NCBI GenBank assembly: GCA_964435825.1
Contig: CAYTAB010000001.1
Coordinates: forward strand, 1-47,363
Direction of reading: 5' to 3'
DNA from: Candidatus Woesearchaeota archaeon
Lineage (GTDB): Archaea > Nanobdellota > Nanobdellia > UBA10117 > JABICX01
Length of the DNA stretch: 47,363 bases
Every line of letters starts with the position of its first letter. Positions within the stretch are counted from its first letter, which is position 1. Positions 2,134 to 33,863 of this stretch are shown piece after piece. Below the pieces are notes generated by a model, which saw only the letters and a program-made list of their open reading frames with translations, had not been told where the DNA came from and did no database searches. A program made the translations under genes and the position numbers.

Positions 2134-2215
2134 TTTATGTTCGCTATGAGTAAGGTTTTTATACTTTGCTCACAGTTGAGAGTAATCCAATCTTGATTGG
2201 AGGTGTAATAAAAAA

Positions 2216-3850
2216 ATGGAATTACTAAAAAAAGGACTTCTTGGATTAGTCGGTGCTATTTTATTAATAGCAGCAATGTCCACAGGAGTTTTTGCACATA
2301 GTATTGTAACAATTGAGAACACTGAAATTACAATTAATGAAAATGACGACATTATACCTATAAGTATTACTGTATTGAATACAAATCTAACTGATTCAAT
2401 GGTTGGTAGTGCTTATATTAAAGACAGCACAGAACATGACATAAATGACTATGTTGAGACAAATTTCGTTATTCCTGCAAACACCCAAACTTCCACACTA
2501 CAAACCCTTAATTTTGCATTAAAAAATGCAGTTCAGGGTGACTATATCATCAATCTTGTAATTAATGGTGATGATATTGATGAAGTTTTTGTTGCAGGTT
2601 TATCAGGAGATAAAAAAGGAGAAGATATTCCTTTAACAATTCATATTGAAGAAGCAGTTTATGATAAAGATACAGAAATTGCTCCTGGTTTAATTGACGA
2701 AATTGATGTTGAGGAAGATACACTTGCTCCTGGTGAGACAGTTGACTTTGAAGCAACACTTGAAACAGATGAAGGAGAAAGATACGAAGATGTTAAATTA
2801 ATTGCTTGGTTAGAAGATGAATTTGGAGAAAGATTAACAAGTAAATATGAAACTTCAGAATTCAATATTGGAAAAACAAGCGATGATGACAAAGAAGTTA
2901 AATCAATGTCAATTCCAATACCTGTTGACGCAGATGAAGGTGAATATACTCTTGTTGTAAGAGTTGAAGGAATTATGGAAAGAGATAGTGTTACAGGTAA
3001 CAGAGGTTTACTTGATATGTCAAGATCAGAGACAATTGATGTTGAAAAAAGAGACCACTCCTTTAAACTTGAGTCTGTAAAGATGGCTGATACTGCTGTA
3101 GCAGGATCAACAATTAATTTTGAAGTCACTGTTTTGAACAATGGAAACAATGATGAAAACGACGTGTTTATGCAGGTGGCAATTCCTGAATTAGGAATCG
3201 CACAAACTTCAAGTGGAAAAACCCTTGAAGAAGGATCAACTATAACCAATTACTTCACTCTTTCAGTTCCAGCAAGTGCTGAAGCTGGTGAGTATAATGT
3301 ACTTGTGAGTGCATACAATAACAAATTTACAACAGTAAGCCAATTCAAGTTAAAAGTAAGTGGTGAGTCTATTGTTGATCAAGAAGAACCTGAGATTCTT
3401 GTAAATGAACCTGTAAAATCTGTTGGAGATATAGGTGTAGTTTACACTTTATCTATTACAAATACTGGTTCTACAGTAAAAACACTTTCTTTTGAAACTG
3501 CAGGATTAAGAGACTGGGGAACAGGAAGCATTAACCCTCCAGTAGCTGTAATTCCAGCAGGTGCAACAAAAATGATTTCAGTTTTTGTAACACCTAATGA
3601 AGGTGTAACTGGATCACAGCAATTTACTGTATTTGTAAAAGAAGGATCACAGGTTATAGACAGTGTTGTTTTCACTGCTGAAGTTGAGTCTGATGAAACT
3701 TCAGAAGGAGTAGTTACTGCTGCTCTTAAATGGGCAATTGGAATTTTAATCCTTGTTTTAGTTGTTGTATTCATTGTTTGGACTTGGAGACGAGAAATCA
3801 GTGGAAACACTAAACAGACAACAAGAAAAACTAGTAGAAGATACTACTAA
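2216..3850 (+). CDS. Secreted, C-terminally anchored surface protein with CARDB-like modules (paralogous to the upstream gene)
   Basis: GGAGGTG at 2199-2205 lies 10 nt before the ATG. The N-terminus LLGLVGAILLIAAMSTGVFA is signal-like. Modules are LAPGETVDFEATLE...IPVDADEGEYTLVV and VAGSTINFEVTVLNNGN...VPASAEAGEYNVLV. The C-terminal helix WAIGILILVLVVVFIVWTW is followed by RREISGNTKQTTRKTSRRYY. Confidence 0.7.
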   Translation: MELLKKGLLGLVGAILLIAAMSTGVFAHSIVTIENTEITINENDDIIPISITVLNTNLTDSMVGSAYIKDSTEHDINDYVETNFVIPANTQTSTLQTLNFALKNAVQGDYIINLVINGDDIDEVFVAGLSGDKKGEDIPLTIHIEEAVYDKDTEIAPGLIDEIDVEEDTLAPGETVDFEATLETDEGERYEDVKLIAWLEDEFGERLTSKYETSEFNIGKTSDDDKEVKSMSIPIPVDADEGEYTLVVRVEGIMERDSVTGNRGLLDMSRSETIDVEKRDHSFKLESVKMADTAVAGSTINFEVTVLNNGNNDENDVFMQVAIPELGIAQTSSGKTLEEGSTITNYFTLSVPASAEAGEYNVLVSAYNNKFTTVSQFKLKVSGESIVDQEEPEILVNEPVKSVGDIGVVYTLSITNTGSTVKTLSFETAGLRDWGTGSINPPVAVIPAGATKMISVFVTPNEGVTGSQQFTVFVKEGSQVIDSVVFTAEVESDETSEGVVTAALKWAIGILILVLVVVFIVWTWRREISGNTKQTTRKTSRRYY

Positions 3851-4058: not shown

Positions 4059-6395
4059 ATGAAATATATAAAAATTTTTATGCTCTTAGCAGCAATTTTA
4101 TTGTTTGCTCCTGTTGTTTTTGCATCAGCTGATTTTGAAGTTGTAGAAGCTCAGACATCAAAACAAACCTGCCCAACACATTTTGTTGTTTATGAATTTA
4201 AGGTAGTGAACTTAGGAGATGTTTCAGACAGCTATACAATTACTAAATCAGGTATGGCTGCAAATTGGGCTTTAATCTCTCCTGCAGGTTTTATCTTAGC
4301 TCCAGGAGAGAGCCAGGATATTTATGTATATGTTTCTCCAAGTAAAGATGCATTATCTGGAGAATATTCTTTAGATTTAAAAATAACTTCTGGTAAAGCA
4401 GGTTCTAAAACTATTGAAAATGTTCTTAATGTTAAAGAGTGCAATTCAGTTTCATTAAGTTCTGATGCAACAAAAATTAATACTTGTTCAGGAGAGCAGA
4501 TTGAATTTAATTTTGATGTGATTAATGAAGGAATTTGGACTGAAACTTTTGAACTTTCAATGACTGGCAGTGCTGCAAAAGCAGCTTATCTAAACACTGA
4601 AAAGGTACGACTTGATGCTTTAGAATCAGAGGAAGTATCTCTTCAGGTTGATTCTTCATTGCTTGAACCAGGAAGATATTATCTAACTGTAACTGCAGAT
4701 TCTCTTGAAAGCAGAGCTACAGAAAAACTTGATTTTAGTTTTCAATTAGAAGGCTGTTATAATTATAGAATTTCTGCACTTACCTATCAATCACTTTGTG
4801 AAAATTCAGAACTGAAGGTTCCATTAAGGATTGAAAATATTGGTTTGTCTCAAGATACTTATACCCTTGATATTATTTCAGGACCAAAATGGGCTGTTTT
4901 TGAAACTGAGCAGATAACTATTAATGGCGGAGAGTATAAGGAAATTAATCTTGTTTTAACTCCAAAATATGGTGAATCTGGCGCAGAGACAATTAAAGTG
5001 CTTGTTGAATCTGAAAAATCTCAGATTAAGCAATTGCTTGATTTTAAAGTTGATGTTCAAGATTGTTATGGTTTGCGTATAGATTTAGGTAAGGATTCAG
5101 ATAGAATTTGTGTTGGAAATAAAGTAAGCTATCCAGTTAGTATTACAAATCTTGGAAATTTTAGTGAAAATATAGCATTAAGTGTTAATACTGATTGGGC
5201 AACATTGGACCAGAATTTTATTCAATTAGAGCCAGCTGAATCTAGAATTCTTAATCTTGAGGTAGAGCCTGATTCTGAAGTTTTACCTGCTGATTATAAG
5301 ATTAAGATTAATGCAGAGCTTCAGCGTGATTTTAAGGTGAAGGAGACCAAATCTTTAGATATTTTAGTACCTTCAATTAAAGATTGTTTTGGATTAAAAA
5401 CCAAAGCAGAGATTTCAGAACTAGATGTTGCTTATGGAGAGGGCGCTTTAATTCCAATTGTTGTTGAAAATCTTGGAACAGAAAAAGCAACATATTTCCT
5501 TGATTTAAGTGGTAATGGAGTTAGTTATGCTAATTTAAATCCTGCAATTCTTTCAATTGAAGGAAATAGTGCTCAAATAGCTAATCTATATATTTCTGTG
5601 CCTTTAGATGCAGAGAAAGAGGAGTATAGTGTAATTGTTTCTGCAAGAAATTCTGAAGGAATTGTTTCAAGTTCAAGTGAAATTAAATTTTCTGTTAGTG
5701 AAGAAACAAGCCAGCAAGAAGAATCATGGTCACTTACTACAGAAGAGTTTATTAGTGGAAATAAAACCAGTATTTTTACTCATCTAAGTGTTTTTGTTCA
5801 AGATGCATTTGCTAAGTTTAAGAGTATTTTTATTAGAAATCCTGATGTTTCTGAAGGAAAGCAATCTCTTGTTTTGGAAAATGCCACAAATGAATCTGCT
5901 GGTATTCAGATAGAAGAGGAAGCTGAAAGTGTTGAGCAGATGACTGAGAATTATGAGACTCAACAACAGACTGAAGAATATGCAGGATTATTGAGCTTTT
6001 TTAAGAGATATTGGCATTTAATGTTGATTTTAGTTTTAATTGTTTTTTTAACTGGCTCAATTATTAAAGTTGCACTTACAAAAGATGATGAATTTAAAAA
6101 TCTTGTTTTTGAAGAAGAAGTTAAAACAAAGAAAAAGCATCATAAGGTCCAAAAACATCTAAAGAAAACTGAAAAAAAAGAATCATCATTTGGAAAGCAG
6201 TTTTTAGGTTTCTTTAAAAATAAGCAAAAAATGAAATCTTTGAAAGCACCAAAAACTTTACTTAATTTAAAAAAGAGCAAGAAAAAAAAGAAAAAACCAA
6301 TTAAGAAAAAAGCTTCTAGAAAACAGAAAAAAAGAATTGCTACTAAACTTAAAGGTTATTGGAAAAAATTTAAAGACTGGCTTAATGAAGAATAA
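4059..6395 (+). CDS. Surface protein with five ~95-aa Cys-led Ig-like repeats (COG1470-like), a TM anchor and a 105-aa lysine-rich cytoplasmic tail
   Basis: MKYIKIFMLLAAILLFAPVVFA is a canonical signal peptide and is preceded by GGAG. The ORF-track start at 4029 is an alternative, possibly leaderless, start. Repeat boundaries are marked by KECNSVS, EGCYNYR, QDCYGLR and KDCFGLK. Each repeat contains a N(L/I)G...Y-type strand pattern. The TM helix is YWHLMLILVLIVFLTGSIIKVAL. The tail is rich in K runs (KKSKKKKKKPIKKKASRKQKKR). Confidence 0.7.
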   Translation: MKYIKIFMLLAAILLFAPVVFASADFEVVEAQTSKQTCPTHFVVYEFKVVNLGDVSDSYTITKSGMAANWALISPAGFILAPGESQDIYVYVSPSKDALSGEYSLDLKITSGKAGSKTIENVLNVKECNSVSLSSDATKINTCSGEQIEFNFDVINEGIWTETFELSMTGSAAKAAYLNTEKVRLDALESEEVSLQVDSSLLEPGRYYLTVTADSLESRATEKLDFSFQLEGCYNYRISALTYQSLCENSELKVPLRIENIGLSQDTYTLDIISGPKWAVFETEQITINGGEYKEINLVLTPKYGESGAETIKVLVESEKSQIKQLLDFKVDVQDCYGLRIDLGKDSDRICVGNKVSYPVSITNLGNFSENIALSVNTDWATLDQNFIQLEPAESRILNLEVEPDSEVLPADYKIKINAELQRDFKVKETKSLDILVPSIKDCFGLKTKAEISELDVAYGEGALIPIVVENLGTEKATYFLDLSGNGVSYANLNPAILSIEGNSAQIANLYISVPLDAEKEEYSVIVSARNSEGIVSSSSEIKFSVSEETSQQEESWSLTTEEFISGNKTSIFTHLSVFVQDAFAKFKSIFIRNPDVSEGKQSLVLENATNESAGIQIEEEAESVEQMTENYETQQQTEEYAGLLSFFKRYWHLMLILVLIVFLTGSIIKVALTKDDEFKNLVFEEEVKTKKKHHKVQKHLKKTEKKESSFGKQFLGFFKNKQKMKSLKAPKTLLNLKKSKKKKKKPIKKKASRKQKKRIATKLKGYWKKFKDWLNEE

Positions 6396-13639: not shown

Positions 13640-13954
13640 ATGTGTGTGGCGGTAAGAGGAGGTAAAAGGATTATTCCTTTAATTTTTGCATCTATGGCTA
13701 TTGCTTTAGTTGGTTTTCTCCTTTATTCATATTTAATTAGATTATTAGCTCCTGAAGAAAATGGAGTTACTTGTAGTGTTGATGAAGATTGCGTAGCTTC
13801 AGAGTGTTGTCACCCCTCTGAATGCGTACATGTAAGCCAACAGCCAGACTGTAAAACAGTGTTTTGTTCAATGGATTGTCAAGAGGGAACAATGGATTGC
13901 GGTCAAGGCAAATGTGGTTGTGTTAACGGCAAGTGCGAAGTAATTCGTGCTTAA
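13640..13954 (+). CDS. Membrane-anchored, cysteine-rich small protein (104 aa)
   Basis: The N-terminal anchor is IIPLIFASMAIALVGFLLYSYLI. It is followed by TCSVDEDCVASECCHPSECVHVSQQPDCKTVFCSMDCQEGTMDCGQGKCGCVNGKCEV, which has 12 Cys in about 60 residues. The stop is 17 nt before the subtilase ATG. Confidence 0.6.
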   Translation: MCVAVRGGKRIIPLIFASMAIALVGFLLYSYLIRLLAPEENGVTCSVDEDCVASECCHPSECVHVSQQPDCKTVFCSMDCQEGTMDCGQGKCGCVNGKCEVIRA

Positions 13955-13971
13955 AGGTATTGAGGTACTCA

Positions 13972-16900
13972 ATGAAGTACAAACTGGTACGAGAAGGTAT
14001 GTTAGCATTTTTGTTATTATTCTTAGTTATCCCTTTTTCTTTTGCATCTTTAAATTATCAGTCTGATGATTCAGTTCATATTCCTTCTAAGGTAATTGTT
14101 GTTCTAAAAGAAGGAGCAACAATTGATGATTTAGAGCTTAATAGAGTTTCTGAAATAGAGAGCAGTGAAAAACAAACTGCGTCACGAAATTATGCTTCTC
14201 GTGCCGTAACACAACAAGTAACTTTTGATTCTACAGATGACCATTTTAAAGTTATTAGAACCTTTGGAGGTGCTAATGCTTTTGCAGCAGAGATTACACC
14301 GACTACTTTTCTTGCTTTAGAGCAAAGTTCAGATGTTGAGAAGATTTACAATGCAGATGAATTTAAGTTTATGGCAATGCTTCAAGATTCAGCTGATTTA
14401 ATTAATGCTACCCAAGTTTATACTATTCAGGTGAATTCAACAAACATCACTGGTAAAAATCAGGTTGTTTGTATTGCAGATACTGGAATAGATTATACTC
14501 ATCCAGATTTTTGGGGTGAATATTTAAATCATTCAATTACTGATGCATTTGATTTAACAAGAATTATGCAAAACAGCGGTTTTAATATTGTTTCAGATAC
14601 AATTATTACTTCCTATGCAGATTCTGATTATCTACTAGCAAATATATCTTTTAGTAATAACATTTTTTATTTAAATTCTTTAATTTCAAAAAATTATTTC
14701 ACTGACTTTGAGCAAACTCAATTGCTTCAGAATGAGTCTGAGTTTGAGAGTTATGCAAACATTACTATTAATAATGGAACAGTTTCAGTTGAGAATAAAA
14801 CTGATGCATACTTTTTAGTAAAACTAAACCACTCTTCTGGATATGTGGGCGATGTAGTTCTTAGCTGGCAAGAAGCTAAGGACAATATGACAATAGAGGC
14901 GTTTGTAAGTCTAGATAATAAGACATCCTGGCAGCAGGTAACTAATTCAGAGGTAATATCGTCAGGTCAGACAAATGAAAACTATACGCAGATGTATTAT
15001 TTATTTAATTTTACATTGACTAATGTTACAGGATATGCAAATGTCTCTAATGTCATTATAAACTACACTCTTTATTCTATTGTGTCTGAGCCAGTAGTTG
15101 AGTTTTCTGTTGATGGGCAGGAGTGGATTAATGATTCTGCTCTTGAAACATATTGGCCTCCATATTATAATAATTCAATTTTATATTATCGGGTTAATTT
15201 AACAGATGTTTTGAATAATGTTACAATAAATATATCCAGTATTGAAACAAAGACTGTTTTAAATCCAAAAATAATCGGTGGATATGATTTTGTAAATAAT
15301 GATGCAGATGTTTTTGATGATACAGTTAGTTCTAAAGAAAGTCATGGAACTCATGTTGCAGGAATAATTGCAGCAAATGGCAAAATAAAAGGAATTGCTC
15401 CTGATGCAAAACTTGTGATTGTTAAGGTTCTGGATTCTGTTGGTTTTGATACTGGTGGAAATATAACCTCTGGAATTGAGTATTGTGCAAATTATTCAGA
15501 TACATTTGGAACAGAGATAAATGCAATTAGTGTAAGCATTGGAACATATTCTTATCATAGTTCAACTTATTGTGATGGTGATTTTCCAGATATGTCTGCA
15601 GCAATTGAAACTGCTGTTCTGAAAAATATTTCAGTGATTGTTGCAACTGGAAATGAGAACACAATTGGTGCAATTTCATCTCCTGCTTGTTTTGAAAATG
15701 TAACTCGTGTTGGAGCAACAGATAAAAGTTATAATATTGAATCTTACACAAACAGAGGAGATTATTTTGATATTTATCTTGCTCCAGGTTCTTCTATTAA
15801 TTCAACAGTTAAAACTGCTTCCTATGCTGAAAAATCTGGAACATCAATGGCTACACCACATGTGTCTGCAGTTATTGCTTTATTGTCTCAATATTTGCAA
15901 GAAACAGGAATTGATAGTTTAACTCCAAAAGAGTTTAGAACTTTGCTTGATGGAAGTGGAATGAAAATATATGATTCTCCTTCAAATGGAACATACACTT
16001 TTGTTGATGCATATCAGGCAATTGAAGATTTAAAGGTTTCTTTTTCAGTGGAAAACACAGGATATTATTTTGAAAAAGGAGAGATACTTAATTTTTCAAT
16101 TTCTAGTGATTTCTTTAATATCTCTGATGTGTTTTATGAAAATTCCTCTTCAAATGTAAGTCTGCCTAAATATTCTGAAGAGATGAAATGGTATTTAAAC
16201 ACAAGTGGTTGGAGTGTTGGAGAACATAACATTAGTTTATTTATTAATACAACAGATGACCAGATTTTTGAAAGACAATATTCTTTTGGAATTGATACAA
16301 AACCAAATATTACTTGGTGGAGTATAAGAACAAGAAATGAATCTGGTCAAGATGCAGTATTTAATGTTTCACAGCCAAATAATTATCAGATTTATGCTTA
16401 TGAAAAAAACAGGTCTATTGAGAACTTTTGGGCATATGTATCAGCAAATGATTCTGAGTCAGATTCAATTACTTATTTCTGGAAGGTTTCTCCTCAAATT
16501 AGCGGATCTGATTATTTGAATTATAATGGAACAGATTTTATTCAAAATATTTCTGGCTGGTTCCAGTCTCATGATGCAGGAACATATACTTTGGAGTTAA
16601 TTGCATCTGATAATAAACTTAATTCATCAATTAATTTTAATCTTACAGTTATTGACCCTTATCCACCATCTATTTCAACAATCCAGAATTTTGAAGATTT
16701 AGAAGAAGGAGATGTTTTTACACTTAATGTAACGCCTTTTGTTACTAATCCAGATAATGATGCTCTTACTTATTCTTTAAGTTCAGATGCTACCAATGAT
16801 GGTTTTGTTATTAATTCAAAAGGAATTCTGTCCTATGATGATGGAGCATTTGATTGTGGTGATGCAGATAATTATTATATTATTGTTTATGTTTCAGATG

Positions 16901-17949
16901 GTACAACAACAGTTAGTTCAAATGAATTTAAATTAGTTGTTGCTGTTTCTGAGTCTTGCGTTGAAGAACAACAAGAACAAGAGCAGAATTCTCAAGAAGA
17001 TGAGCTTTTATCTCAAAACAACATTCCTGGAATATCAGTTACTAAAATTTTCTCAATTGTTAGAAAAGATACAGATACTGCATTCTCAATTAGTAAAAAA
17101 GAGGTTCCAGTTTCAATGTTGATGTTTAATACTTTTAGAGAGCTTACTAATTTGAAAATTATTGTTAGGTCTTTTAATATTAGACCAAGTACAATCTCAC
17201 CTGCACCTGGATCAGTGTATAAATATTTTGCAATTGATGAAATAAATCTCAACAACTCTTTAAGAAAAGCTGAAATTACAATCAGAGTTTCAAAAAAGTG
17301 GATTGACAATGAGGAAATTATCCATAATTCAATTTCATTGCTTCATTATGATATTGACACAGATCTCTGGCAGAAATTACCAACTGAATTTAAACGAACA
17401 GATGACGAGTTCTTTTATTATGAAGCAGAAACAAATTCTTTTTCATATTTTGCAATTACTGGAACAAGTGTTAAAGCTGACCCAAAAAACAAACCAACAG
17501 AAACCCCAAAAGCAGGATTGTTAACTTCACCTAAAAATAATTCAAATGCTGTTACTGGAAGATTAGTATCTTCTGATGAATCTATCTTTAAGAAATCAGT
17601 TGAATTTTTTGAAGATAATTTATTTGCATTTATTATTATATCTTCAACTCTTGCAATTATTGTTTTAATTGCTTTATTTAAAACAGATATTTTACTTTCA
17701 ATTTATAAAGATAAAGTTACGCCTCATAAAAAAATGAGAACAAAGGAAAAGCCACCAAAAAGCCATGCAAAAATCCATAGACATGTTCGTTCATTTACTA
17801 AACAGAAAAAAAAGAAGAGATTAACTGCAGATTATCTTTTTGAATTTTTGAAAATGTTTAGAACTCGCAGGTCTTTGGCTAAAGTTTCAAAGAGACTTAA
17901 AGCTAGACAAAGAGATTTAGAGAAAATTAAAAGGAGATATCAAAACTAA
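13972..17949 (+). CDS. Giant subtilisin-like serine protease (S8). It has an I9-like propeptide, a large Asp-His insert, cadherin-like and PGF-pre-PGF-like domains, and a TM anchor plus basic tail.
   Basis: The catalytic motifs are VVCIADTGIDYTHPDF (Asp), HGTHVAGIIAANG (His) and SGTSMATPHVSAVIALL (Ser). The propeptide-like region is KVIVVLKEG...FKVIRTFGGANAFAAEIT. The ATG at 13972 is preceded by tgaggt; the track start at 13933 is a GTG inside the upstream gene. ...DALTYSLSSDATNDGFVINSKGILSY is cadherin-like. The C-terminal TM helix is LFAFIIISSTLAIIVLIALF. Confidence 0.9.
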   Translation: MKYKLVREGMLAFLLLFLVIPFSFASLNYQSDDSVHIPSKVIVVLKEGATIDDLELNRVSEIESSEKQTASRNYASRAVTQQVTFDSTDDHFKVIRTFGGANAFAAEITPTTFLALEQSSDVEKIYNADEFKFMAMLQDSADLINATQVYTIQVNSTNITGKNQVVCIADTGIDYTHPDFWGEYLNHSITDAFDLTRIMQNSGFNIVSDTIITSYADSDYLLANISFSNNIFYLNSLISKNYFTDFEQTQLLQNESEFESYANITINNGTVSVENKTDAYFLVKLNHSSGYVGDVVLSWQEAKDNMTIEAFVSLDNKTSWQQVTNSEVISSGQTNENYTQMYYLFNFTLTNVTGYANVSNVIINYTLYSIVSEPVVEFSVDGQEWINDSALETYWPPYYNNSILYYRVNLTDVLNNVTINISSIETKTVLNPKIIGGYDFVNNDADVFDDTVSSKESHGTHVAGIIAANGKIKGIAPDAKLVIVKVLDSVGFDTGGNITSGIEYCANYSDTFGTEINAISVSIGTYSYHSSTYCDGDFPDMSAAIETAVLKNISVIVATGNENTIGAISSPACFENVTRVGATDKSYNIESYTNRGDYFDIYLAPGSSINSTVKTASYAEKSGTSMATPHVSAVIALLSQYLQETGIDSLTPKEFRTLLDGSGMKIYDSPSNGTYTFVDAYQAIEDLKVSFSVENTGYYFEKGEILNFSISSDFFNISDVFYENSSSNVSLPKYSEEMKWYLNTSGWSVGEHNISLFINTTDDQIFERQYSFGIDTKPNITWWSIRTRNESGQDAVFNVSQPNNYQIYAYEKNRSIENFWAYVSANDSESDSITYFWKVSPQISGSDYLNYNGTDFIQNISGWFQSHDAGTYTLELIASDNKLNSSINFNLTVIDPYPPSISTIQNFEDLEEGDVFTLNVTPFVTNPDNDALTYSLSSDATNDGFVINSKGILSYDDGAFDCGDADNYYIIVYVSDGTTTVSSNEFKLVVAVSESCVEEQQEQEQNSQEDELLSQNNIPGISVTKIFSIVRKDTDTAFSISKKEVPVSMLMFNTFRELTNLKIIVRSFNIRPSTISPAPGSVYKYFAIDEINLNNSLRKAEITIRVSKKWIDNEEIIHNSISLLHYDIDTDLWQKLPTEFKRTDDEFFYYEAETNSFSYFAITGTSVKADPKNKPTETPKAGLLTSPKNNSNAVTGRLVSSDESIFKKSVEFFEDNLFAFIIISSTLAIIVLIALFKTDILLSIYKDKVTPHKKMRTKEKPPKSHAKIHRHVRSFTKQKKKKRLTADYLFEFLKMFRTRRSLAKVSKRLKARQRDLEKIKRRYQN

Positions 17950-26756: not shown

Positions 26757-28415
26757 TTATTTATGAGTGAAAATAAATTCTAGCTTGTTTTTAGTTTTCT
26801 TTTCAAGTCGAGCAAATCCAAATCTTTCAAATTGAACAATTTCACCAACTTTTATTTGTACGCAATTTGGTTCACATAGTCCTTTTATTTTTTTTCCATT
26901 TGTCATTAAAACTTCAGCAGGAATGTTTTCTTCAGAAATCCAGTGTATTTTCTGAATTGAATGCTTAATATTATTGTCAGTTATTTTTGCTTTTTTAGTT
27001 AACATTATGTTTGTTAGGTCTTTTAGTCTGATTTCTTTTCCTTTGTTTTTTTCAAAATCACTCTTTGTTATGAAGATTTTGTTTGTTGCTTTAATTTTTC
27101 TTGTTTCTTTTTTATTTGGATGTAATGGCAGTACTGAAACTTTTTTGAAGTTGTTGTCTAAAGTTATTTTAACAAAAGGCTTTGCGACAAAAAAATACCT
27201 ATTGCATTCTGCATCAAGGAATTTGCGATTTATTGAAGACAAAAGGCTATCATCAATTGGTGTTGGTGTTTTTGAGAGTCCGACTTTTTTTGCAAGTTCA
27301 TAAAAAGTTTCTGGTTTAAATCCTCTTCTTTTTAATGCTGCAAGTGTTGGAAAAGAAGGATGGTCCCAAGTGTATTTTCCTTTTGTTACTAGCTCTCTTA
27401 AATGCCTTCCAGATGTTTTTTCTAATCCAGCTACATTAAATCTGCCATATTGAATATAGGTTTTTTCTTTAAAACCCATTAATTTTGAAAGATATTTTTG
27501 AAGTTCAATTCTTTCATTTCCAAATTCAATACTTCTTAAAATATGTGTTACTCCTGTCCATTCTTCTTCACATGTTGAAGCAAAATCATACAAAGGCCAC
27601 ACTATATATTTTTTTCTTTGCCGATAATGTTCAGAATAGTTGATTCGAAAAATAGAAGGATCACGCATCACTGCATTTTTGGATTTCATATCTCCGCGCA
27701 ACCTTAATGTACATTCTTTTTCTTTGAAATCTCCATTAAGCATTTTGTTCCATAATTTTAGGGTTTCTTTTTCTTTTGCTTTTGAACATTCACATGATTC
27801 TTTTTTTGTTCTTAATTTTGAAATTTTTTCTTGATTACAGAAACACACATATACTTTGTTTTCTTTAATTAATTTATTGATTTGAGAATACATTTTTTCA
27901 ATATCATCTGAAGTGTAGACTGTTTTTGATGGTTTTATTCTTAAATATTTAATTCCATCTAAAAAGGAATTTACAAATTCTGCTTTATCTTTTTCAGGAT
28001 TAGTATCATCTATTCTGAGAATGCATTTTCCATCATATTTTTTTGAATACATATAATTGATTAAGAAAGAGATTGCATGACCTGCTGTCATAAAATTACT
28101 TGGTCCTGGAGGCATTCGTGTAACAACTTTATTCATAACTGCATTTGGTAATTCAGCTAATTCTTTTTCTTTTTTTTCACGATGTAAAAGATTTGGGAAT
28201 TCTCTTTTTATTTTAAGTTCCTGTTCTTCTTTTGTCATTGAATTAATTTCATCAACAATTTTCTTAATAATTTTTGAAGTTGTTTTTATCTCTGATTTAG
28301 TGATTTCTTTTGATGCAAGAAGCTTTCCAAGAACAGCTTTTTCATTTGCAGTTCCTTTATGTAAGTATGCATTCTCTAAAGCAAATTTTTTAATAGAAGT
28401 TTCTAATTTTTTCAT
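26757..28415 (-). CDS. gltX: Glutamate--tRNA ligase (archaeal type)
   Basis: An archaeal GluRS N-terminal helix domain (KKFALENAYLHKGTANEKAVLGKLL). Class I core ...GHAISFLINYMYSKKYDGKCILRIDDTNPEK, VTHILRSIEF, and WDHPSFPTLAALKRRG. There is an ATGA overlap with tyrS. Confidence 0.85.
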   Translation of the reverse strand: MKKLETSIKKFALENAYLHKGTANEKAVLGKLLASKEITKSEIKTTSKIIKKIVDEINSMTKEEQELKIKREFPNLLHREKKEKELAELPNAVMNKVVTRMPPGPSNFMTAGHAISFLINYMYSKKYDGKCILRIDDTNPEKDKAEFVNSFLDGIKYLRIKPSKTVYTSDDIEKMYSQINKLIKENKVYVCFCNQEKISKLRTKKESCECSKAKEKETLKLWNKMLNGDFKEKECTLRLRGDMKSKNAVMRDPSIFRINYSEHYRQRKKYIVWPLYDFASTCEEEWTGVTHILRSIEFGNERIELQKYLSKLMGFKEKTYIQYGRFNVAGLEKTSGRHLRELVTKGKYTWDHPSFPTLAALKRRGFKPETFYELAKKVGLSKTPTPIDDSLLSSINRKFLDAECNRYFFVAKPFVKITLDNNFKKVSVLPLHPNKKETRKIKATNKIFITKSDFEKNKGKEIRLKDLTNIMLTKKAKITDNNIKHSIQKIHWISEENIPAEVLMTNGKKIKGLCEPNCVQIKVGEIVQFERFGFARLEKKTKNKLEFIFTHK

Positions 28416-29452
28416 ATTAGGGTGGGGTATGCTTTTTTTAGAAGCATCTGTTTAGCAAAAAGTTTTGTTCTTATTTTTGAAATAATTTTAATTAACTCTT
28501 CTGCGCATGAATTTTTTAAATCAATTGGATGAAGCCCATTTTTAAAAGCTTTTTTAAGTTCATTAATGTTTTTTGGTTTTAATGTACCTCCAAACTTAGC
28601 AGGACGCTTTATTTCAAGAGTTTTTTTCTGATATTCGAGAACTGGGAAGATAATTAATTCAAATATATCTAAAATTGGATTGTTTTCTGTTTGATTTGCA
28701 GGACAAAATGCATTTGAAATTTTCTTTTTTATATCTGAATCTGAATCAATTAAGCTTATTTTCTTTCCTGAAGAACTTGACATTTTTCCATTCATTCGCG
28801 AGCCTTCAATATTATTAAGCAGTGGTGTGAAGATACAAACTGGTTTTTTATATCCTAGTTCAGGCAAAAGTTCTCTTCCAAGCATATATATTCCTCTTTG
28901 GTCAATTCCTGAAAATGCAATATCTGCTTTAAGTGCGACAATGTCTTCTATTTGCATAAATGGGTAAAAAAAGCCACCCATTTTTGGAGCATCTCCAAAC
29001 CTAACAACTTCAGATGTTGCTCTTTTTGTTCGATTCATTGTAACTAAATTTGACATTTGAAGAATATCCAACCAGTATTGTTTATTAAATTCAAAATCAG
29101 AGCCTTTTACTAATTTTATTTTTTTTGAATTAACATTAAGCAAATTCATTACTGCTTTAATAACTTCAAGATAAACTTTTGCACGTGCATCTAAAAGCTT
29201 CCAAGGAGATTTTTTATCATCTAAATAAGCATGAATATCTGCAGCCATAAAAGTAAAATCAACTCCTGCAGTAATCATATCTGCTATTTTAATTATTGGA
29301 ACCAGATGACCAATATGCATCATTCCAGTTGTTGCATAACCAATATATGCTTTTATTTTCTTTTTTTCTGAAAATAAGTTTTTAAATTCTTTTTCTTCTA
29401 TAATTTCCTGAACATTTCTTTTAATCAGGTTTAACTTATCCTTAACTTTCAT
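28412..29452 (-). CDS. tyrS: Tyrosine--tRNA ligase (archaeal type)
   Basis: GYATTGMMHIGHLVPI (HIGH), ADIHAYLDDKK and GKMSSSSGKKI (KMSSS), comparable to the Methanocaldococcus TyrRS motifs. Confidence 0.85.
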   Translation of the reverse strand: MKVKDKLNLIKRNVQEIIEEKEFKNLFSEKKKIKAYIGYATTGMMHIGHLVPIIKIADMITAGVDFTFMAADIHAYLDDKKSPWKLLDARAKVYLEVIKAVMNLLNVNSKKIKLVKGSDFEFNKQYWLDILQMSNLVTMNRTKRATSEVVRFGDAPKMGGFFYPFMQIEDIVALKADIAFSGIDQRGIYMLGRELLPELGYKKPVCIFTPLLNNIEGSRMNGKMSSSSGKKISLIDSDSDIKKKISNAFCPANQTENNPILDIFELIIFPVLEYQKKTLEIKRPAKFGGTLKPKNINELKKAFKNGLHPIDLKNSCAEELIKIISKIRTKLFAKQMLLKKAYPTLI

Positions 29453-29492: not shown

Positions 29493-30188
29493 TTATCTAT
29501 ATTCGACTTTTTCAATATATTTTTCTGCTGTTTCTTTTAGTGCTTTTAATTGAGCTTCTGAAAATGATTTTTCATTCATATAGTCTGGATTAAGAGTATT
29601 TAATGGCCTGAAGTTTTGTATTATGTATTTTTTAGCTCCTTTAAGATGCTGGGATATTTTTTTAATATCCTCTTTAGTGTGGTGTTTTGGAAGAACTGTT
29701 GTTCTAAATTCATAATCTGGTGCAGATTTCTTAATAATTTCAATGCTTTTTTTGATTTTTTCAATATCCACCTCTGTTCCTGAGGTTTCTGAATATTTTT
29801 CAAAGCAGTTTTTGACATCCATCGCAATATAATCAATTAATTTCTTGTCAAGAAGCTCTTTTATTTTATCAGGAAATGTTCCATTTGTATCAAGTTTTGT
29901 CAGAAACCCTTGTTTTTTTATTTGCTGCAAAATCTGTTTAAGTTCTGGATGCAGAGTTGGTTCTCCGCCAGTTATTTCAACAGCATCAACCCATTCTTTT
30001 TTTGAAGCAATGTCTTCTAAAACTTCAAAAAAGTTAATAGATTCAAGTTTATCACTTTCTAAAACAAGCGAACTATTATGGCAGAATGGACAGCGAAAGT
30101 TGCATTTATCTAAAAAAATTATTGATACTATCTTTCCAGGCCATTCTACTAAAGAAGTTGGTTCATAACCAAACACCTTAATTTCCAT
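29493..30188 (-). CDS. nrdG: Anaerobic ribonucleoside-triphosphate reductase activating protein (radical SAM)
   Basis: CNFRCPFCHN (CxxxCxxC) and VEITGGEPTL. It lies directly downstream of nrdD. Confidence 0.85.
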   Translation of the reverse strand: MEIKVFGYEPTSLVEWPGKIVSIIFLDKCNFRCPFCHNSSLVLESDKLESINFFEVLEDIASKKEWVDAVEITGGEPTLHPELKQILQQIKKQGFLTKLDTNGTFPDKIKELLDKKLIDYIAMDVKNCFEKYSETSGTEVDIEKIKKSIEIIKKSAPDYEFRTTVLPKHHTKEDIKKISQHLKGAKKYIIQNFRPLNTLNPDYMNEKSFSEAQLKALKETAEKYIEKVEYR

Positions 30189-30384
30189 TATTATAGCTTA
30201 TTAGTTTTGCAGGATTTGTTTTGTCATTAGAAAGGTTTTGCTTGAATTTTCCTTCATGCAGTTTTTTTCCTGAAAAGGTTCTTCTAAACCTAAACTCTTC
30301 TGCTTTTCCTTTATTCCATTGTTTTACAGGTCTGAAATATCCTACAATTCTAGTATATACTTCACATTCTTTTCCACATTTCAT
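30178..30384 (-). CDS. Stand-alone NrdD C-terminal zinc-knuckle + glycyl-radical segment (68 aa)
   Basis: MKCGKECEVYTRIVGYFRPVKQWNKGKAEEFRFRRTF matches the canonical NrdD extreme C-terminus (RxxGY radical loop, wNxGKxxE). There is an ATGA overlap with the large nrdD ORF, and GGAGGT lies 8 nt upstream. Confidence 0.75.
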   Translation of the reverse strand: MKCGKECEVYTRIVGYFRPVKQWNKGKAEEFRFRRTFSGKKLHEGKFKQNLSNDKTNPAKLISYNNGN

Positions 30385-32837
30385 TCTTTTTTACCTCCAT
30401 CAAAAAAAGTGTCTATCTCTTTTTCTTTTTCAATTTCATGCGGGCAAATCCAATGCTCTCCAGAGATATAACCATGTTCAGGACAGATACTAAATGTTGG
30501 GGTGATTGAAAAATAAGGAATTTTTGTGTTATATGCTATTTTTTTTACAATTGCTTTGCAAGACTCTGCATTAGCAAGTCTTTCTTTTAGAAAAGTGTGA
30601 AAAATTGTTCCTCCAGTGTAGAGTGGTTGTATGTCGTTTTGATGTTTTAGAGCTGCAATTGCATCATCAGAAAAATCAACTGGAAGCTGTGTGGAGTTTG
30701 TTAAAAAAGGTTCTTTTTCTCCAGAAGTATAAATGTCTGGATACATTTTTTTATCTAGTTTTGCTAGCCGATATGATGCGCTTTCTGCAGGTGTTGCTTC
30801 AAGATTATAGAGATTATTTGTTTCTTTTTGAAATTTAATCAAAACCTCTCTCATAAAGTTCAAAGTTCTTATTGTTAGTGATTTTCCTTGTTTTGAGCTA
30901 ATGTCTTTTCCAATTAAATTTACACAAGCTTCATTCATTCCAATTAGGCCTATTGTTGAAAAATGATTTCTAAATGTTCCGAGATATCTTTTTGTGTAGG
31001 GCATTAGTCCGTTTTTTAGATTTGTGTTTATAATTTTTCTTTTTATTTCTAGTGATTCTTTTGCAAGATTCATGTAATATTCAATTTTTTCAAAAAATTC
31101 TGGTTCTGATTTAGATTCATATGCAAGTCTGTTTAAGTTAATTGTAACAACTCCTACTGAACCTGTGCTGTCTCCCATTGCAAAAGTATGACCTGGTCTG
31201 TTTATTAATTCAAGCATATTTAAATTAAGTCTGCAACACATTGCGCGAATTGACTGCGGGTCAAGACCAGAACCAATGTAATTTTGAAAATACGGAGTAC
31301 CATATTTTGCAGTTACTTCAAAAATAAGGTTTGCAATTTCTGAGTTCCAATTAAATTCTTTTGTTAGATTATATGTTGGTATTGGAAATGTGAAAATTGC
31401 ACCAGATGAATCTCCAGCAATCATTATTTCAAGAAATGCTTTGTTTATCATATCCATTTCTTTTTGGCAGTCTTTATAGTAAAAATTCATTTCTTTTCCA
31501 CCAACAATTGCTTTTTGTTTTTTCATATCTTCAGGTACAACTAAATCAAAAGTTAAATTTGAAAAAGGATATTGTGCCCCCCATCTTGAAGGAATATTTA
31601 GTGAAAATATAAGTTCTTGCATGCATTGTTTTACTTCTCTGTAAGAAAGATTATCTGTTTTTACAAATGGTGCAAGTAGAGTATCTACTGATGAGAACGC
31701 CTGTGCTCCTGCAAATTCCATTTGCAAGCAGCCAATATAGTTAATCATATGATTAATTAATGTTCTGAGATGTTTTGCAGGTTTTGAATTTACCTTATTT
31801 TTTACTCCACCAAATCCCCATAGAATTAGATTTTTTAATGACCATCCTGCACAATAACCGATAAGTCCCTGACCTAAATCATGTATATGGATATATCCTT
31901 TTTTATGTGCATCTGCAACTGCAGAAGGAAGTTCATTTAAGATATAATTTGAGATGATTTGACCTCCTGCATAGTGCATTAGTCCTGAAAAAGAATATGC
32001 TTCACTTGCATTTTCTTTTACTCGCCAGTCTTTTTGTTTTAAATAATTTCTTATTGTTTCAGAAACATCTAGGAAGATTGATTTAGTTGATGAGATTTTT
32101 TCTTTAATTTTTCTTGTTAAAATATATGTTTTTGCAAGTTCTGCACTGCAATTATTAACCAAAACCTGTTCAATTGTATCTGCAATTTCTTCACTAGTTA
32201 CAATTGTCGGACTATTGAATTTTTGTTCAAGCAAATAAACAACTTCTTTTGCAAGTTCTCTTGCAAAATCTGCATCAACTTCATTTATTTCTTGCTGGCA
32301 TTTAACAATAGATTCAGCTATTTTATTTTTATCAAACAGACTAATTGCCCCTTTAGCATTTCTAACTTGAAGTATTGTGTTTTTTACTTTTTTTCTCTTT
32401 TTTAGTAATTTTACTTCTCTTTCAAATGAAGAATAATCTGAGAACTCCCTATAAACTGATGCAAACCGAATATATGTTACTGAGTCAAATTTTTTTAATT
32501 CTTTAAGAATAGTTTTTCCAATTTCAGATGATTGAATTTCTGTTTTTTTTGTTTCAAAAATTTTTTTCTCAATTTTTTGAACAACTGCGAGTATTTCTTC
32601 TTCTGTTTTTCTGTTTTTTGCAGCAGTTTTTATACCTTTGATTATTTTATCCCTGTCATATGCCTCTTTTTTCCCAGTTTTTTTAATAACTGTTAAAGAA
32701 GGACCTTCAATTTTCTCAAATGTTGTAAATCTATGATGACAGACTAAACACTCTCTTCTTCTTCTTATTTCTGCATTAACAGTGTCTCGAGTATCAAGAA
32801 CTTTTATATCTTCTGAAGAGCATCGTGGGCATTTCAT
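30381..32837 (-). CDS. nrdD: Class III (anaerobic) ribonucleoside-triphosphate reductase large chain with an N-terminal NrdR-like module (Zn-ribbon + ATP-cone) and a second ATP-cone. It lacks the glycyl-radical tail.
   Basis: The N-terminus is MKCPRCSSEDIKVLDTRDTVNAEIRRRRECLVCHHRFTTFE...VTYIRFASVYREF (NrdR signature). The second ATP-cone is ILQVRNAKGAISLFDKNKIAESI...AKTYILTRK. The NrdD core contains AMCCRLNL. It ends ...ICPEHGYISGEHWICPHEIEKEKEIDTFFDGGKKE. Confidence 0.85.
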   Translation of the reverse strand: MKCPRCSSEDIKVLDTRDTVNAEIRRRRECLVCHHRFTTFEKIEGPSLTVIKKTGKKEAYDRDKIIKGIKTAAKNRKTEEEILAVVQKIEKKIFETKKTEIQSSEIGKTILKELKKFDSVTYIRFASVYREFSDYSSFEREVKLLKKRKKVKNTILQVRNAKGAISLFDKNKIAESIVKCQQEINEVDADFARELAKEVVYLLEQKFNSPTIVTSEEIADTIEQVLVNNCSAELAKTYILTRKIKEKISSTKSIFLDVSETIRNYLKQKDWRVKENASEAYSFSGLMHYAGGQIISNYILNELPSAVADAHKKGYIHIHDLGQGLIGYCAGWSLKNLILWGFGGVKNKVNSKPAKHLRTLINHMINYIGCLQMEFAGAQAFSSVDTLLAPFVKTDNLSYREVKQCMQELIFSLNIPSRWGAQYPFSNLTFDLVVPEDMKKQKAIVGGKEMNFYYKDCQKEMDMINKAFLEIMIAGDSSGAIFTFPIPTYNLTKEFNWNSEIANLIFEVTAKYGTPYFQNYIGSGLDPQSIRAMCCRLNLNMLELINRPGHTFAMGDSTGSVGVVTINLNRLAYESKSEPEFFEKIEYYMNLAKESLEIKRKIINTNLKNGLMPYTKRYLGTFRNHFSTIGLIGMNEACVNLIGKDISSKQGKSLTIRTLNFMREVLIKFQKETNNLYNLEATPAESASYRLAKLDKKMYPDIYTSGEKEPFLTNSTQLPVDFSDDAIAALKHQNDIQPLYTGGTIFHTFLKERLANAESCKAIVKKIAYNTKIPYFSITPTFSICPEHGYISGEHWICPHEIEKEKEIDTFFDGGKKE
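30393..30398 (-). promoter_or_regulatory. Shine-Dalgarno site (GGAGGT) for the small glycyl-radical ORF, embedded in the 3' end of the large nrdD ORF
   Basis: The mRNA reads GGAGGU-aaaaaaga-AUG, with a spacer of 8 nt. Confidence 0.6.
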
Positions 32838-32863: not shown

Positions 32864-32969
32864 TTCTAAAATACTTTTTTGGTGTGTATTATTATCTTGC
32901 TAGAAATATATAATTCTTTGTGACACTTTTGATACAGTAACAAAATGTAGTATCTATTGAAAGAAATTA

Positions 32970-32985
32970 ACACTAGATATAGTAT
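32970..32985. promoter_or_regulatory. NrdR-box-like imperfect palindrome
   Basis: acactagatatagtat matches the published NrdR-box consensus acaCwAtATaTwGtgt at 14 of 16 positions by hand alignment. It lies about 135-150 bp upstream of the nrdD ATG. Confidence 0.3.
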
Positions 32986-33195
32986 TTACTTTGAATTTAC
33001 GATTTTTTGAATTTCACTAATAAGTTTCTTTATTTGTTCAGAATTCATTCCATGAGCTCTAGCACCTTGTTCCAGAGTTTCATATGTAGCCATGATACAG
33101 CCAATACATCCTAATCCAAGTTTTGAAAATATTTCTGCAGTTTCTGGATATTTTATGATTAGCTCGCGAATATTGGTGTCTTTTGTGATTTTCAT
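32986..33195 (-). CDS. DUF1858-type small protein (hybrid-cluster-protein-associated redox disulfide domain)
   Basis: MKITKDTNIRELIIKYPETAEIFSKLGLGCIGCIMATYETLEQGARAHGM fits the DUF1858 pattern with a CxxC pair. Confidence 0.7.
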   Translation of the reverse strand: MKITKDTNIRELIIKYPETAEIFSKLGLGCIGCIMATYETLEQGARAHGMNSEQIKKLISEIQKIVNSK

Positions 33196-33495: not shown

Positions 33496-33676
33496 TGAAT
33501 TAATTGGTGGATGGCTAATTCTTATTGAGTCTTTAGTATATTTTTTATTTTTGCTTTCATATAGAGAACTTCTAAGTGCATTTTTAATGTCCTTACCACT
33601 TTTTTTATGCGGAATCCTTTTTTTAATTTATGAATATGTATTTAAAGGTAAAAAGAAGAAAAGAGGGCTTAGCTGA
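33452..33676 (+). CDS. Small membrane protein, or the C-terminal part of a frameshifted one
   Basis: It has two hydrophobic helices and a KGKKKKRGLS tail. It starts 44 nt before the previous ORF ends, in the +1 frame. Confidence 0.4.
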   Translation: MSVAISFSVLVSWFNELIGGWLILIESLVYFLFLLSYRELLSAFLMSLPLFLCGILFLIYEYVFKGKKKKRGLS

Positions 33677-33863
33677 TTTTTATGCATTTTCCAGGACATG
33701 CAGCTTCAGCTTGTTTTGCTTTTTCAATTATTGCATTGTCTGTTATTGAAGTTGTTTTTGCTTTTGCTTTTCCATCAGAAGCCATTTCAAATACTTCAGG
33801 ACATAATCCAACACATGCTCCGCATCCAATACAACAATTTCTATCTTGTTTTACTTTTGCCAT
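33669..33863 (-). CDS. Small single-cluster ferredoxin
   Basis: CIGCGACVGLCPEVFEM...EAACPGKCIKI resembles the Pyrococcus/Thermotoga-type [4Fe-4S] ferredoxin layout. Confidence 0.85.
   Translation of the reverse strand: MAKVKQDRNCCIGCGACVGLCPEVFEMASDGKAKAKTTSITDNAIIEKAKQAEAACPGKCIKIS

Follow-up and report, generated by a model that had tools for sequence, protein, structure and literature searches.

In-frame fusion of an NrdR repressor module with a class III ribonucleotide reductase in DPANN archaea, with a predicted operator upstream of its own operon

The DNA analyzed here is a 47,363-nt stretch (hereafter, the window) of a Candidatus Woesearchaeota archaeon, corresponding to contig CAYTAB010000001.1. 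On its minus strand it carries a gene (30381..32837; 818 aa plus stop) in which a complete NrdR, the repressor of ribonucleotide reductase (RNR) operons, continues in frame into the class III RNR NrdD. The product of this nrdR-nrdD fusion gene is identical to that of an 818-aa open reading frame (ORF) present in a public collection (P0271). From the N-terminus, it consists of an NrdR zinc ribbon (residues 1-41; 32715..32837, minus), delimited with PF22811 and by alignment to E. coli NrdR (PDB 9FVR), and an NrdR-type ATP-cone (residues 49-144; 32406..32693, minus), delimited by profile and alignment and containing K52, E58, K64 and the YIRFASVYR motif. A 12-residue basic linker (LKKRKKVKNTIL, residues 145-156; 32370..32405, minus), identified by junction comparison and by an AlphaFold predicted local distance difference test (pLDDT) score below 50 at residues 146-150, leads into a second, enzyme-type ATP-cone (residues 157-250; 32088..32369, minus), which profile and family consensus indicate to be degenerate in this lineage. 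The class III catalytic core follows (residues 275-800; 30438..32015, minus; PF13597, PRK08270), including its MCCR finger loop (31230..31241, minus).

Both halves of the protein are recognized by curated profiles. The NrdR equivalog TIGR00244 (NCBIfam) matches residues 1-143 with 139.4 bits against a curated cutoff of 124.65, and residues 1-150 on their own reach 145.4 bits with the same model, while the Pfam model Zn_ribbon_NrdR (PF22811) covers residues 1-41 with 57 bits (cutoff 27.2). Pfam detects two ATP-cone stretches in the ORF, which score 64 bits (cone 1) and 54 bits (cone 2) with PF03477 when evaluated singly. On the enzyme side, NRDD (PF13597) spans residues 275-800 with 557 bits, PRK08270 (ribonucleoside triphosphate reductase) spans residues 157-801 with 932 bits (cutoff 548), and TIGR02487 matches the ORF with 468 bits (cutoff 326). 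The finger-loop motif, M533-C534-C535-R536, is invariant in 63 relatives and corresponds to one of the two finger-loop classes, MGCR and MCCR, defined for NrdD (PMC9669993). An AlphaFold model based on 63 homologues (mean pLDDT of 79) resolves four folded units, with low-confidence, flexible linkers at residues 42-46, 146-150 and 250-254. Foldseek searches with the core returned the NrdD structures of S. thermophilus, P. copri, T. maritima and T4 as top matches, and those with the N-terminus returned E. coli and S. coelicolor NrdR (TM score of 0.64-0.70 normalized to target, 37-41% identity). The original prediction, made from the letters alone, that a complete NrdR lies in frame with a class III RNR in an archaeal genome is therefore borne out by TIGR00244, Pfam and PRK08270. 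The residues it quoted are found in the ORF, and the domain scan it proposed, with NrdR-family, ATP-cone and anaerobic RNR models, returned matches to all three kinds of model, the NrdR equivalog scoring above its curated cutoff.

The residues with which NrdR contacts DNA and nucleotides are largely retained in the fused module. In S. coelicolor NrdR, bases are read by D15 and R17, and the DNA backbone is held by R12, R26-29 and R37 (PMC9110341). Alignment to E. coli NrdR (PDB 9FVR) identifies the equivalents in the window protein as K12, D15, R17, R25-28 (RRRR) and R36, next to the zinc-ribbon cysteines C3, C6, C30 and C33, which form two CxxC motifs. Across 102 fusion clusters, D15 is conserved in 98, R17 in all 102, and K/R12 and R36 in 101 each, and the RRRR stretch is near-invariant, whereas neighboring positions are free to vary. 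The inner and outer nucleotide sites of S. coelicolor NrdR involve K50, R51, E56, K62, F124, V127 and Y128 (PMC9110341). In the window, K52, K53, E58, K64 and FASVY are present; K52 corresponds to E. coli K53 and hence to S. coelicolor K50, based on the E. coli alignment and on the equivalence given in PMC9110341, and the position of S. coelicolor R51 is occupied by a lysine. Both K52 and K64 are invariant in 63 two-cone fusions.

Loaded with ATP and dATP, NrdR forms a tetramer whose DNA target is a pair of 16-bp boxes separated by 15-16 bp (PMC9110341; PMC12051234). We scanned the whole 47-kb window with a matrix derived from six E. coli boxes (PMC12176259). The top-scoring 16-mer of the window (16.45 bits; runner-up, 11.74) is a candidate NrdR box (ATACTATATCTAGTGT on the gene strand; 32970..32985) located 148 nt upstream of the fusion gene ATG, directly after the stop codon of the preceding gene. 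Allowing up to two mismatches, the box core CACTATATATAGTG has a single match in the window, which is this box, against a chance expectation of 0.17. A second candidate box (ATACTACATTTTGTTA; 32938..32953), retaining the C4 and G13 positions, lies 32 bp away center to center, leaving a 16-bp spacer, and the two boxes constitute the top pair in the window (summed score of 23.7, next best 14.9). The pattern extends to related loci that carry nrdR or the fusion: in 22 of 24, the highest-scoring box of the locus (4-12 kb) lies at most 250 bp upstream of the gene, as it does in nine of the ten fusion loci, with the tenth at -261, and boxes usually occur as a pair 31-32 bp apart. Since both the DNA-contact residues and an upstream operator have been retained, selection thus appears to have kept the reading head and its operator in the fused state.

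Between the boxes and the ATG of the fusion gene lies a conserved block, AAGTGTCACAAAGAATTATATATTTCTA (32901..32930, minus), that is also conserved in L084, the locus of the closest relative, and that we regard as a candidate archaeal promoter element combining a TFB recognition element (BRE) and a TATA box. The window and L084 (about 4915-4945) share it as AAGTGTCACAA..ATTATATAyTTCTA. The box pair occupies a distal position, at about -148/-116 in the window, -146 in L084 and -143/-111 in L087, upstream of the conserved TATA-like block. In most other archaeal loci, by contrast, a proximal box precedes the ATG by 21-47 nt, in the region expected to hold a TATA box or the start site of a short-leader transcript, and L084 and L087 have an additional, proximal pair of their own; a search for such a proximal pair in the window did not find one. 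The second-best matrix match in the window (11.7 bits) falls within nrdD at 30487-30502, about 100 nt before the downstream small-subunit gene described below. It covers the codons of the conserved TPTFSIC motif and recurs in L085, and is probably a by-product of protein conservation.

The junction between the two halves, which reads ...FEREVKLLKKRKKVKNTILQVRNAKG..., is free of stop codons, and in the contig sequence no stop separates the NrdR part from the second ATP-cone, as the original prediction had stated. No ATG, GTG or TTG able to start an independent NrdD was found near the junction, the first in-frame ATG beyond it lying near residue 297. A scan of one genome per species revealed that many archaea and some bacteria carry nrdR directly upstream of nrdD as separate genes, so that both arrangements occur among related archaea. 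Such loci include those of a Nanoarchaeota member (L004), Bathyarchaeia (L005 and L025), a Woesearchaeota member (L006) and Thermoplasmatales (L036), as well as Spirochaetaceae (L024) and Saccharibacteria (L026). Just 0-15 nt separate the stop of nrdR from the ATG of nrdD in these operons, at exactly the position of the basic linker of the window protein, KLLKKRKKVKNT. On this sequence comparison, the fusion derives from a tightly coupled nrdR-nrdD operon through loss of both the nrdR stop and the nrdD start. Read-through of the stop codon was also considered for those relatives in which the two genes share a frame (L004, L005, L006 and L009), and was rejected as unnecessary because each of them has a normal nrdD ATG just past the stop.

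The fusion is a common subclass among DPANN archaea and not a singular event. A full-length query recovered, together with P0271, 119 relatives at 56-72% identity, of which about 100 carry the NrdR zinc ribbon and are named Woesearchaeota, Aenigmarchaeota, Nanoarchaeia or Nanobdellota by their sources. The fusions had initially appeared rare, with queries using the N-terminal 300 aa returning almost exclusively free NrdR and a handful of truncated fusions, but this rarity was an effect of query choice and filtering, as the roughly 100 fusion clusters obtained with the full-length query made clear. Two size classes can be distinguished: in 52 clusters the zinc ribbon is followed by two cones, as in the window, and in 31 it is joined straight to a single enzyme-type cone (e.g. 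P0124/L001 and L008). A distantly related second NrdD clade presents the same two-cone fusion in Woesearchaeota (L003 and L007) and Nanohalarchaeota (L010). One of its members, L003, has an in-frame TAA at 4180-4182 within the NrdD core, with the downstream sequence continuing in the same frame, so that this could be a pseudogene or a further split gene, or the sequence could be in error. Inteins with LAGLIDADG domains, one or two per protein, interrupt the NrdD core in several fusions (L001, 6001-10332; L008, 4001-7471; P0315, P0317, P0346, P0349 and P0388). NrdR proteins with other additions were also observed (P0001, P0152, P0173 and P0229; L021), bearing two to three tandem ATP-cones or C-terminal extensions that resemble unrelated enzyme domains.

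Within the window protein, divergence is concentrated in the second cone. The protein departs from the 90% consensus of 62 relatives at 30 positions, 14 of which fall in cone 2, a segment making up about 12% of the protein, and just two in the NrdR module. The cone 2 hairpin, V-x-K-R-D-G in all relatives, reads V-R-N-A-K-G in the window, so that N and A take the place of K160 and R161, two residues with a conservation of at least 90% across the family; in addition, the YILYR motif of the relatives has become YILTR, with loss of an aromatic residue. A similar decay is seen in the closest relative, P0272 (72% identity). Even though cone 2 lacks the KR pair, it still matches PF03477 at the 54 bits given above. 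The enzyme's own allosteric cone hence appears to be degenerating. Without the conserved phosphate-binding KR pair in cone 2, the NrdR cone is probably the only working nucleotide sensor in this lineage, where it may also govern enzyme activity.

The reductase itself is split. The 818-aa ORF terminates after CPH and an 18-residue tail, and the KCGKEC...RIVGY segment is encoded by the next ORF, a 68-aa gene (30178..30384, minus) that bears zinc-site cysteines and the glycyl-radical motif (MKCGKECEVYTRIVGY...), matches the last 37 positions of NrdD models, and has its own ATG in an ATGA stop/start overlap with a GGAGGT Shine-Dalgarno sequence 8 nt upstream. The zinc site and RxxGY motif that class III enzymes carry on one polypeptide are therefore not both present on the 818-aa ORF, which thus does not encode a complete NrdD, a detail that the original prediction overlooked. 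Comparable splits occur in L001, L006, L007, L010, L026, L085 and L087, with differing junctions and, in several cases, a ribosome-binding site and ATG of their own; the small C-terminal genes span 60-72 aa (L001, 10334-10519; L085, 7468-7677; L087, 7458-7676). The C-terminal glycine motif is absent in about 46 of the 120 closest relatives. A variable loop separates the two halves of the zinc site, and the break lies in this loop; at that place the closest intact relative reads CPTCGKECEVY and the window has about 20 inserted codons. A homopolymer frameshift, in which one extra A in an A6 run would join the frames, was considered as the cause of the split and rejected on account of these extra codons, the Shine-Dalgarno sequence and stop/start arrangement, and the similar tails of other split relatives. 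By its sequence, the radical-bearing piece is a separate small subunit, which implies that this class III RNR has two subunits, with the radical on a detachable one. No paper on a split glycyl-radical C-terminus of NrdD was found in the literature searched.

The small-subunit gene is followed by nrdG, encoding the radical-SAM activase (29493..30188, minus; TIGR02495 NrdG2, 196 bits against a cutoff of 131). The order nrdRD, nrdG, tyrosyl-tRNA synthetase (TyrRS) and glutamyl-tRNA synthetase (GluRS), the last two at 26757-29452 (minus), is kept in L084 and L085, whose identity to the window is 63-72%. The gene immediately preceding the fusion gene encodes a DUF1858 CxxC protein (32986..33195, minus; PF08984), which occupies an equal position in L084, L085 and L086. 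A small ferredoxin is encoded near it (33669-33863, minus), and in L085 and L086 a glutaredoxin and a ferredoxin-thioredoxin-reductase beta subunit are found close by. These neighbors may constitute the reductant chain of this MCCR-type reductase. The host is archaeal, as its archaeal-type GluRS and TyrRS indicate, together with two putative S-layer proteins of the PACE-CTERM kind and a subtilisin-like protease of 1338 aa that contains a PGF-pre-PGF domain (88-3850 and 13933-17949, both plus); the S-layer proteins and the protease are markers of a Pacearchaeota-like DPANN host. The G+C content is about 30%. Scans of the window for tRNAs and Rfam families produced no matches.

The interpretation that we consider probable is that the fusion is a bifunctional enzyme-repressor, that is, a class III RNR catalytic subunit having a complete and functional NrdR as its N-terminus, with which it would repress its own operon in response to dATP/ATP. 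Among the roles originally proposed for the module, that of an autorepressor is the best supported, on account of the canonical pair of upstream NrdR boxes and of the conserved DNA-contact residues. As the dATP/ATP ratio rises, the NrdR cones would bind both ATP and dATP, and two NrdD dimers would join through their NrdR modules in a DNA-binding tetramer like that of free NrdR; this tetramer would occupy the two boxes, lowering transcription of the nrdRD-nrdD'-nrdG operon. Several considerations weigh against this interpretation. It would require a fusion of about 95 kDa to adopt the tetramer geometry of NrdR, and a cell normally requires many more copies of an enzyme than of a repressor. The matrix was built from only six E. 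coli boxes, and box 2 is weak when taken alone, ranking 19th in the window with 7.3 bits. Both boxes precede the ATG by 100-150 nt and apparently also precede the best TATA candidate, which is not the classic position for a repressor in archaea. With regard to a free NrdR or another RNR elsewhere in the genome, the analysis covers this single window. For the clade comprising the window, L084 and L087, the sign and mechanism of regulation proposed here are provisional.

The box placement also bears on whether the fusion binds its boxes in some role other than that of a classic repressor, as an activator, as a block on transcription running on from the DUF1858 gene, or as a tether holding the enzyme near DNA. 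Activation is conceivable because the boxes lie upstream of the candidate BRE/TATA element, an arrangement conserved across the three loci of the clade. Archaeal regulators bound upstream of the BRE are often activators. We nevertheless regard a non-repressor role as unlikely, given the proximal box of most other archaeal loci, the second, proximal pair of L084 and L087, and the fact that free NrdR represses wherever it has been tested. Comparably unlikely, in our assessment, is that the module has left DNA altogether and persists just as an extra allosteric or oligomerization unit, made up of tandem ATP-cones and a zinc-ribbon dimerization element, with the boxes as relics. Tandem multiple ATP-cones are known in RNRs, P. 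copri NrdD is inhibited through dATP-driven, cone-mediated tetramers (PMC11226230), and the degenerate cone 2 of the window could simply have been replaced by the NrdR cone. Against this, the base-contacting D15 and R17 and the backbone arginines are near-invariant in 102 diverged fusions and an operator is kept upstream in all ten fusion loci examined, neither of which would be expected without selection for DNA binding. That the architecture is an artefact or pseudogene, in which the nrdR stop was lost through faulty assembly or sequencing or through a very recent mutation, could be argued from the A-rich runs at both the junction and the C-terminal split and from the metagenomic assembly of the contig. 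This explanation is effectively refuted. The nrdR stop and the nrdD start are both absent, so that a single-base error cannot explain the fusion, and more than 100 independent clusters from many samples, defined at 90% identity, share this architecture, which likewise disposes of the recent stop-codon loss contemplated in the original prediction. At the C-terminal break, moreover, the closest split relatives have homologous tails, the small ORFs have their own Shine-Dalgarno sequence and ATG, and some 20 codons are inserted relative to the closest intact relative.

If the fusion is indeed an enzyme-repressor, a further and more tentative possibility is that one polypeptide closes both deoxyribonucleotide feedback loops. 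The NrdR cone would here drive operator binding and also control catalytic activity, replacing the decayed cone of the enzyme, and in the one-cone sister class the enzyme's cone would have taken over sensing for the repressor. With repressor and enzyme physically joined, the coupling of the two controls becomes testable in one protein. The passage from separate genes to a two-cone fusion, and from there to cone decay or to a one-cone fusion, would neatly illustrate how regulatory domains are exchanged. The instability of free NrdR is notorious, and fusion tags have been engineered for its study (bioRxiv 10.1101/2025.03.28.645925); a natural and abundant fusion family thus offers new material for structural work on NrdR. 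The presence of bacterial-type NrdR boxes beside archaeal promoters also raises the question of how NrdR interferes with TATA-binding protein (TBP) and transcription factor B (TFB).

NrdR has been reported in 22% of archaeal genomes (PMC13584703). We checked papers on NrdR (PMC9110341, PMC12176259, PMC12051234, PMC13584703 and bioRxiv 2025.03.28.645925) and on RNR (PMC11226230, PMC12662201, PMC9669993, PMC9531940 and PMC13450708) for fusions, archaea and N-terminal extensions; none of them mentions an NrdR-NrdD fusion, and broader literature searches likewise found no description of one. Several relatives are nonetheless labeled 'anaerobic ribonucleoside-triphosphate reductase/transcriptional regulator NrdR' by the Joint Genome Institute (JGI). 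The architecture is therefore catalogued by automatic annotation, yet undescribed in the searched literature, and the novelty initially attributed to it holds in this latter respect and not as uniqueness.

The closest known systems include free NrdR, as characterized in S. coelicolor (PDB 7P37/7P3F) and E. coli (PDB 9FVR). Like the window protein, these combine a zinc ribbon and an NrdR-type ATP-cone, have the same residues for contacting DNA and binding nucleotides, and are associated with 16-bp palindromic boxes that are paired across a 15-16 bp spacer and precede an RNR operon; an nrdR-first operon subject to autoregulation is also known, nrdRJ of S. coelicolor. Free NrdR, however, is a separate protein of 140-220 aa, whereas in the window NrdR forms the N-terminal 150 residues of an 818-aa ORF, and of the enzyme that it is predicted to regulate, so that repressor and enzyme are made 1:1 and are unable to diffuse apart. 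Unlike in those systems, the host is archaeal, with a TBP/TFB-type promoter. The adjacent nrdR-nrdD operons of L004, L005, L006, L024, L025, L026 and L036 share the gene order and the upstream boxes, but encode two polypeptides instead of one. The NrdD proteins of P. copri, S. thermophilus and T. maritima resemble the window enzyme in having an ATP-cone followed by the NrdD barrel and NrdG encoded next door, and the T. maritima lineage shares the MCCR double-cysteine finger loop. They differ from it in that the window protein has an extra N-terminal NrdR module, a cone without the KR pair and a glycyl-radical piece encoded by a separate gene. For this last piece, the nearest analogue, loosely alike, is GrcA, the spare-part protein of pyruvate formate-lyase (PFL) (PMC8683613). 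The broader class to which the fusion would belong is that of bifunctional enzyme-repressors, with an operator predicted at its own operon and with enzyme and DNA-binding domain in one chain. PutA, BirA and NadR are such 'trigger enzymes', each of them a metabolic enzyme that also carries a DNA-binding domain and with it adjusts its own operon to a metabolite of the pathway. We know of no RNR described as a trigger enzyme, and with the present family RNR would join the short list of enzyme-repressor fusions. The folds and ligands of PutA, BirA and NadR are unrelated to those of the window protein, whose DNA-binding part is, in contrast to theirs, a whole sensor-repressor, elsewhere an independent protein, with a ligand-binding domain of its own.

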